In this document: positions 35,276-35,640 of the stretch, one piece after another
Layout of the letters: the number at the start of each line of letters is the position of its first letter
Position numbering within the stretch: the first letter of the stretch is position 1
Source of the DNA: Heterodontus francisci
Taxonomy: Eukaryota
Assembly: GCF_036365525.1 (NCBI RefSeq)
Contig: NC_090421.1
Coordinates: 6,204,725-6,268,724 of the forward strand
Length of the DNA: 64,000 nucleotides
Direction of reading: 5' to 3'
The notes under the pieces: generated by a model
Databases searched by the model: none
Told to the model about the DNA's origin: nothing
What the model saw: only the letters and a program-made list of their open reading frames with translations
Made by a program: the position numbers and the translations under genes

Positions 35276-35640
35276 CTGCCTTCCCAGCTTGTTGTTGTGG
35301 AGTCTCATTCTCCCGTGGATGTCTCTCGATGTCTCTCGGGAGTCCAGAAAGTCCCTGGAAAATTTCTCACCGAATTCAATGTCGTGGTTGCAGTCGCCCC
35401 GCTCCCAGGAGTCCTGGATCCCGGGGAAACGCTCCTCGGGCTCGGGGATGGAGACAGGGAGCCCCTGAGTCAGGGCCTGAACCCGCAGCTGGTGGAGCTT
35501 GAAGCGGAGGTTCTGATCGTCTTCTCTCCGCTTCTGGTCGCAACCGCAGCCCTTCAGCTTTCCCAAGCTGCAGGCAGTAGCCACTGAGTGGGTGACCCCC
35601 GCGGCCAGCAGGGAGAACATGAATGCACTTTCCCGGAACC
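35276..35640 (-). CDS. wnt10b: Wnt10b coding exon 3
   Basis: CCCAG acceptor; [29 protein letters not shown]...[14 protein letters not shown]...[14 protein letters not shown] donor; 365 nt. Confidence 0.95.

Follow-up and report, generated by a model that had tools for sequence, protein, structure and literature searches.

Wnt10b of the shark Heterodontus francisci carries the residues WERGDC at a position where nearly all other Wnt proteins present the WxWGG motif of hairpin 1. The variant is real, being neither an assembly error nor private to this genome. We lean, slightly beyond even, toward an intact working ligand in which Asp192 would have loosened the hairpin-1 contact and thereby permitted Arg190, with carriage by Wntless probably proceeding via Trp188 and hairpins 2 and 3.

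The analyzed stretch of 64,000 nucleotides (contig NC_090421.1, positions 6,204,725 to 6,268,724), hereafter the window, holds the gene on its minus strand, an orientation missing from the original prediction of this motif. Positions 35407..35390 of that strand read TGG GAG CGG GGC GAC TGC, confirming WERGDC. The relevant features are as follows:

35390..35407, minus strand: WERGDC, C-terminal end of hairpin 1, at the WxWGG position of other Wnts, aligned to Wnt3a W150-C155
35399..35401, minus strand: Arg190 codon CGG, Trp elsewhere (Wnt3a W152, Wnt5a W179, WNT1 W167; alignment, PMC13434646, PMC10271228)
35393..35395, minus strand: Asp192 codon GAC, Gly elsewhere (WNT1 G169, WNT10A G213)
39262..39326, minus strand: Wnt10b coding exon 1, start codon and signal peptide
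38819..39081, minus strand: Wnt10b coding exon 2, its splice junction with exon 3 present in contig loose ends
35276..35640, minus strand: Wnt10b coding exon 3, hairpin 1 (C141-G-C143 to C193), PF00110, exact exon span in contigs X5, X6, X7 and X10
29889..30347, minus strand: Wnt10b coding exon 4, intact lipidation motif and hairpin-3 WCC
55983..56000, minus strand: WEWGGC of the neighboring Wnt6, internal control
46980-57841, minus strand, with position 6270554 of contig C51 (genome G000) and positions 14133419-14215576 of contig C7: duplicated Wnt cluster

Spliced from four coding exons with GT-AG introns, Wnt10b comprises 1152 nt with one stop and encodes 383 aa including 24 Cys, so that the predicted integrity of the reading frame, lipidation motif included, held up. 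WERGDC represents residues 188-193, coded in exon 3, and the lipidation motif residues 241-250, with the acceptor Ser in hairpin 2. The translation is a 100% match to record P0002, named Wnt-10b (Heterodontus francisci), and its Pfam wnt domain (PF00110) scores 377.6 bits against a cut-off of 20.3, covering profile positions 2-305. Among the features defining a Wnt, the protein thus has the Pfam domain, the Cys scaffold, and the palmitoleoylation motif, and lacks the WxWGG of hairpin 1. It shares with vertebrate Wnt10b the four exons, the 24 Cys, the lipidation motif, the WCC of hairpin 3, the Wnt fold, and the Wnt1-Wnt6-Wnt10 cluster, but differs by WERGD in place of WxWGG.

The gene is present as a single copy (one 100% match in the genome), a second copy with the canonical motif being absent from the genome search, and a Wnt10a-type exon lies on the separate contig C7. 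Wnt10b adjoins Wnt6 and Wnt1, with a Wnt1-type exon approximately 2 kb beyond the window end. In a FastTree phylogeny (356 columns, 51 sequences) it clusters with bony-vertebrate Wnt10b, apart from Wnt10a, whose clade received a support of 1.0. A survey of the Wnt loci of this genome, obtaining the motif at 22 of 25 loci and at several of them twice, revealed that all 16 other motif sites keep Trp and Gly. These include Wnt1, with WHWGGC, and the neighboring Wnt6, whose WEWGGC was found at window 56000-55983 as had been stated. As a side observation, Wnt6 is retained in both halves of the duplicated cluster, arranged as Wnt10b-Wnt6-Wnt1 here and as Wnt6-Wnt10a on C7.

An assembly error had initially been considered as one possible cause of the motif. 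All eight runs, derived from four organisms (A-D), span the motif and carry the Arg codon CGG and the Asp codon unchanged; the Gly codon lying between them differs silently in organisms C and D. The DNA analyzed here may stem from X1, and X5 belongs to the same sample, with organisms B, C, and D being independent. Contigs X5, X6, X7, and X10 end at the exon 3 borders and then run into exons 2 and 4, and consequently the variant is present in spliced transcripts; the RNA label of these contigs is a guess, the exon-exon joins were seen directly. Spliced Wnt10b contigs were found in organisms A, B, and C. Although both changes are single transitions of editable type, practically no weight is left for a genomic assembly error or for RNA editing (C-to-U plus A-to-I) restoring Trp and Gly, since the same residues occur in 11 and 21 species and the spliced contigs X5, X6, X7, and X10 plus contig X18 carry the genomic codons. 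Editing of the majority of transcripts was rejected on this ground, contigs hiding rare variants and thus being compatible with minor editing.

Extension of the analysis toward chondrichthyan orthologs, as had been suggested, made use of Wnt10b records for 21 cartilaginous-fish species from a cluster look-up. Asp192 is common to all 21, among them the chimaera Callorhinchus. Arg190 occurs in 11, namely all 10 galeomorph sharks and the electric ray Narcine, and is found only alongside Asp192. WEWGDC is carried by Heptranchias, Pristiophorus, Pristis, three stingray-type species, and Callorhinchus, and three skates (records P0005, P0138, and P0141) show WEWSDC with an added Gly191Ser, Ser at this position being common in other Wnts (17 of 133 representatives). 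In Wnt10a, WEWGGC is kept by all five chondrichthyan records that were aligned or read. The idea of a lineage-specific change was therefore borne out, but as two steps of different age rather than as one event of this species.

In the protein tree Narcine Wnt10b clusters with those of the rays (support 0.76). On the accepted species tree, the distribution of Arg190 corresponds to two gains or to one gain plus three reversions. A twofold origin, in galeomorphs and in Narcine, is likely on this tree; a single origin followed by three reversions through CpG decay is a possible alternative. In comparison with organism C, 5 of 13 synonymous CpG positions differ versus 19 of approximately 70 other synonymous sites, an excess too weak to establish a retention of Arg190 in the face of reversion.

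In order to place these residues within the family, we collected 434 distinct Wnt proteins, a Wnt10-rich set from which 36 were dropped and 398 retained with an aligned motif, 25 of the latter being chondrichthyan Wnt10b. The remaining 373 display at position 190 Trp in 370, Tyr in two, Ser in one, and Arg in none, and at position 192 Gly in 365, Val in four, and Thr, Glu, Arg, and Asp in one each. Non-chondrichthyan Wnt10-like proteins combine Trp and Gly in 253 of 254 cases, the last one having Trp and Val. Within a set of diverse representatives (133 of 150 with the motif) the sole Arg at 190 belongs to a shark Wnt10b. WxWGG is conserved rather than family-defining, the second Trp being absent in 5 and the second Gly in 10 of these 133. 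Three of them have WQWGVC, a natural side chain at the second Gly as with Asp192, but keep the Trp, unlike Arg190; we take these to be Wnt9b. Furthermore, P0550, P0490, P0451, P0446, and P0531, apparently invertebrate Wnts, have Asp, Glu, Val, Thr, or Arg at the second Gly and all keep the Trp. The chondrichthyan Wnt10b clade accounts for 0.6% of the 398-Wnt tree length and for 3.2% of the length of a tree comprising 279 Wnt10-like proteins. With both Arg origins inside so small a share, a second Arg arising there by chance is unlikely, which is evidence for epistasis under the two-origin reading; the test consists of the second origin alone and requires its independence.

Relaxed constraint across the gene, another proposed cause, does not agree with the substitution pattern. 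Compared with organism C, the 25 listed exon 3 differences (28 in total) comprise 24 synonymous and 1 non-synonymous change as classified by hand, giving a dN/dS of 0.01, or at most 0.04 if the three unlisted ones, near contig ends, were all non-synonymous. The comparison with organism D yielded 22 synonymous and three non-synonymous changes (dN/dS 0.033). Purifying selection acts strongly on exon 3. Congruently, the complete set of 24 Cys is alignable in 18 of 20 chondrichthyan Wnt10b records, the lipidation motif is found in 20 of 20, and the identity across these 20 other records amounts to 84-96%. Over the same 21 species pairs Wnt10b diverges by 8.8% versus 5.2% for Wnt10a, and against coelacanth the identities are 67-71% versus 81-83%; Wnt10b being the faster paralog in that comparison too, the higher rate is not shark-specific.

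Organism D has lost six bases in frame at window 35538-35548 (minus strand), within the Cys-Gly-Cys stretch of residues 141-143. The deletion appears in two runs from two studies, as a gap in X17 and as a loose end of X18 resuming six bases on, and appears to have removed one conserved Cys, C141 or C143. Further changes of this organism are R155H, Q164E, and R211W; the Carcharodon record, in which both Cys are intact, has R211W as well. C143 pairs with the motif residue C193 by homology to the disulfide C159-C214 of WNT10A (PMC5702573), and some slack of hairpin 1 is therefore possible in the lineage of organism D; the loss would point to slack in this hairpin, not to fine compensation. A structure model of shark Wnt10b (116 sequences) shows the Wnt fold with a pLDDT of 85 and matches solved Wnts, but is weak at the motif, where residues 181-190 form coil with a pLDDT of 50, and a salt bridge between Arg190 and Asp192 does not emerge from it; such models are insensitive to point changes.

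What the exchanged residues do has been worked out in other Wnts. Arg190 aligns to Wnt3a W152 in the alignment to PDB chains. This second Trp of WXWGG is described in PMC13434646 as packing on Wntless TM2 and the phosphatidylcholine head group. The same source reports for mouse Wnt3a W152A a drastically reduced surface localization and an abolished carrier-mediated release, for W150A likewise an abolished release (contrary to an earlier report, according to its authors), and for Wnt5a W179 a Trp-lipid pi-cation contact with a secretion defect of W179A. Mouse Wnt3a W152A and human Wnt5a W179A remove the same Trp as shark Wnt10b does, but insert Ala on a Gly background in HEK293 cells with mammalian WLS (PMC13434646). 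In human WNT1, where the motif comprises W167-G168-G169-C170, one cohort of 16 patients included four with G169D, classed as pathogenic, and W167C and G169C are listed as likely pathogenic (PMC10271228). Further sources on these WNT1 variants are PMC8322778, PMC7645613, PMC8170984, and PMC9440047, the last offering predictions only. G169D is reported to retain partial activity (PMC11371906); most tested WNT1 variants are impaired in secretion there, and in its accessible part G169D is not among the named exceptions.

The human alleles G169D, G169C, and W167C, associated with osteogenesis imperfecta type XV or early osteoporosis, hence affect the same two positions, G169D being the identical swap. 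The shark changes differ in lying in a paralog of WNT1, in being fixed, conserved, and combined, and in having Arg rather than Cys at the Trp. With Arg190 at the Trp that contacts Wntless and Asp192 equivalent to G169D, an altered secretion of shark Wnt10b, one of the consequences originally put forward, is plausible and has a structural basis. The equivalence of the replaced Gly to WNT10A G213 was also verified, being residue 213 in three 417-aa primate WNT10A records (the human record not among them). WNT10A G213S is a mild allele: it is rated as of uncertain significance (PMC9776737) and retains activity upon overexpression in zebrafish (PMC5702573), and a reporter assay of it was absent from our literature search.

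Since Wntless is the immediate partner of this contact, its sequence was inspected as well. It is encoded by a single gene in the genome and keeps G229 and W234; a second PF06664 locus (C13) proved to be a different gene, presumably TMEM181-like. No Wntless site separates eight Arg190 species from eight Trp190 species. At the position of human K232, next to G229, this species has Ser (L031:1489-1626, contig C8 of G000), 29 other elasmobranch records have Arg irrespective of their Wnt10b residue, 13 records outside elasmobranchs have Gln, and most bony vertebrates have Lys. With the residue at this site independent of the Wnt10b type and no splitting site, a co-evolution of Wnt10b and Wntless was rejected; in turn, compensation, if any, is more likely to lie within Wnt10b. 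The stem on which Asp192 arose also saw changes at six other near-invariant sites of Wnt10, namely S68A, P101L, S104T, Q162R, V228L, and L302M, and may be regarded as candidates.

Based on these data, the working-ligand reading can be put as a sequence of events. Gly192Asp, common to all sampled cartilaginous fishes, would have come first and loosened the docking of hairpin 1 on Wntless; with WNT1 G169D partly active and this Gly replaced by Val, Glu, or Asp in other Wnts, such a step appears survivable. Trp190Arg would have followed, likely twice, and likely as a consequence of the Wntless contact having been loosened by Asp192. Arg is the residue most easily reached from a TGG codon, so the convergence on Arg is no proof of an Arg-Asp pair. 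A Trp-lipid pi-cation contact of the Wnt5a W179 type is not available to Arg190, which would face Asp192 or the head group of the lipid instead. Lipidation at Ser247 is predicted to persist, as is carriage by Wntless via Trp188 and hairpins 2 and 3, none of which has changed. Shark Wnt10b thus likely works around a hairpin-1 contact thought to be essential, with compensation presumably residing in Wnt10b itself. Sequence, distribution, splicing, purifying selection, and homology to the tested residues were observed; the order of the events, their epistasis, and the continued secretion and signaling are what we deduce. A human disease residue being wild type in another lineage is known as a compensated pathogenic deviation and implies epistasis. 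Asp192 resembles this situation in that a pathogenic residue (G169D) is fixed in 21 of 21 species, but across paralogs and with a compensator that is a candidate only.

A second reading and the main alternative, which we consider rather unlikely though deserving of attention, is an uncompensated weak allele, released less by the Wntless-dependent route and acting as a low-output or contact-range ligand, which would have been fixed owing to Wnt10a covering most of the work, with the rest of the protein kept for the remaining activity. The abolished release of Wnt3a W152A makes a large loss of output possible for shark Wnt10b, and the secretion defects of W179A (PMC13434646) and of most tested WNT1 variants (PMC11371906) point in the same direction, as do the redundancy of Wnt10a and Wnt10b in mouse teeth (PMC9957325), the larger divergence of Wnt10b, and the Cys deletion of organism D. 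Autocrine signaling via direct WLS-to-Frizzled transfer is allowed for in PMC13434646 (2026). In contrast, the low dN/dS of exon 3, the faster rate of Wnt10b against coelacanth as well, and the retention of Arg190 in 10 of 10 galeomorph records and of CGG in organisms A-D speak against this reading.

A more daring combination, to be regarded as doubtful, is that Wnt10b leaves the cell without the hairpin-1 Trp contact and is handed from Wntless to Frizzled at contact range, with its first step, the brittle-bone-type Asp192 in a bone-promoting Wnt, fixed on the branch of bone loss. Improbable to us is also an adaptive retuning, in which a weaker or shorter-range osteoblast-promoting Wnt was selected along with bone loss on the chondrichthyan stem or, later, in tooth and denticle patterning. 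Asp192 does date to this stem, mice with a Wnt10b knockout are low in bone mass (PMC9939717), and the identical swap in WNT1 causes bone fragility (PMC10271228). However, this is one event in one lineage and may be a coincidence, shark Wnt1 keeps its canonical motif, and no evident trait follows the distribution of Arg190, teeth being present in sharks and rays whichever residue they have. Expression data of shark wnt10b were not found in a literature search covering shark, catshark, and elephant-shark, and a link of WERGDC to teeth, denticles, or bone loss finds no support here. Decay toward a pseudogene, suggested by two changes at near-invariant sites and by the conserved Cys that organism D lost in frame, is very improbable in view of the open frame, the canonical splice sites, the high identity, and the strong purifying selection.

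The Wnt10b records are public and correctly named. A description of WERGDC and related motifs in shark Wnt10b was not found in the literature searched, which left most subscription papers outside its scope; the accessible text of bioRxiv 10.1101/2025.08.18.670971 holds nothing on Wnt10b residues 190/192. The finding concerns two residues in a well-known gene family. Its relevance lies in the disputed need for hairpin 1 in Wnt secretion (PMC13434646 versus the earlier W150A report), for which WEWGGC, WEWGDC, and WERGDC on one gene represent a natural series testing this contact directly. If fully active, the shark protein would show suppression of a recurrent WNT1 bone-disease allele by other fixed changes; if weak, it would be a long-standing case of a paralog whose output was lowered at the level of secretion.

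Further observations concern other parts of the locus. Wnt10b residue 85 (window ~38892-38890, minus strand) is Trp in most elasmobranch records (QLWDQRW) and Arg in Callorhinchus and most bony vertebrates; as judged from the aligned residues, elasmobranch Wnt10b would have gained Trp85 before the hairpin-1 Trp was lost. Intron 3 of Wnt10b hosts approximately four copies of a 20-base unit at window 34930-35010, and reverse-transcriptase (RVT_1) fragments at 10217-11143 and 13380-14027 (both minus strand) are probably LINE remnants.
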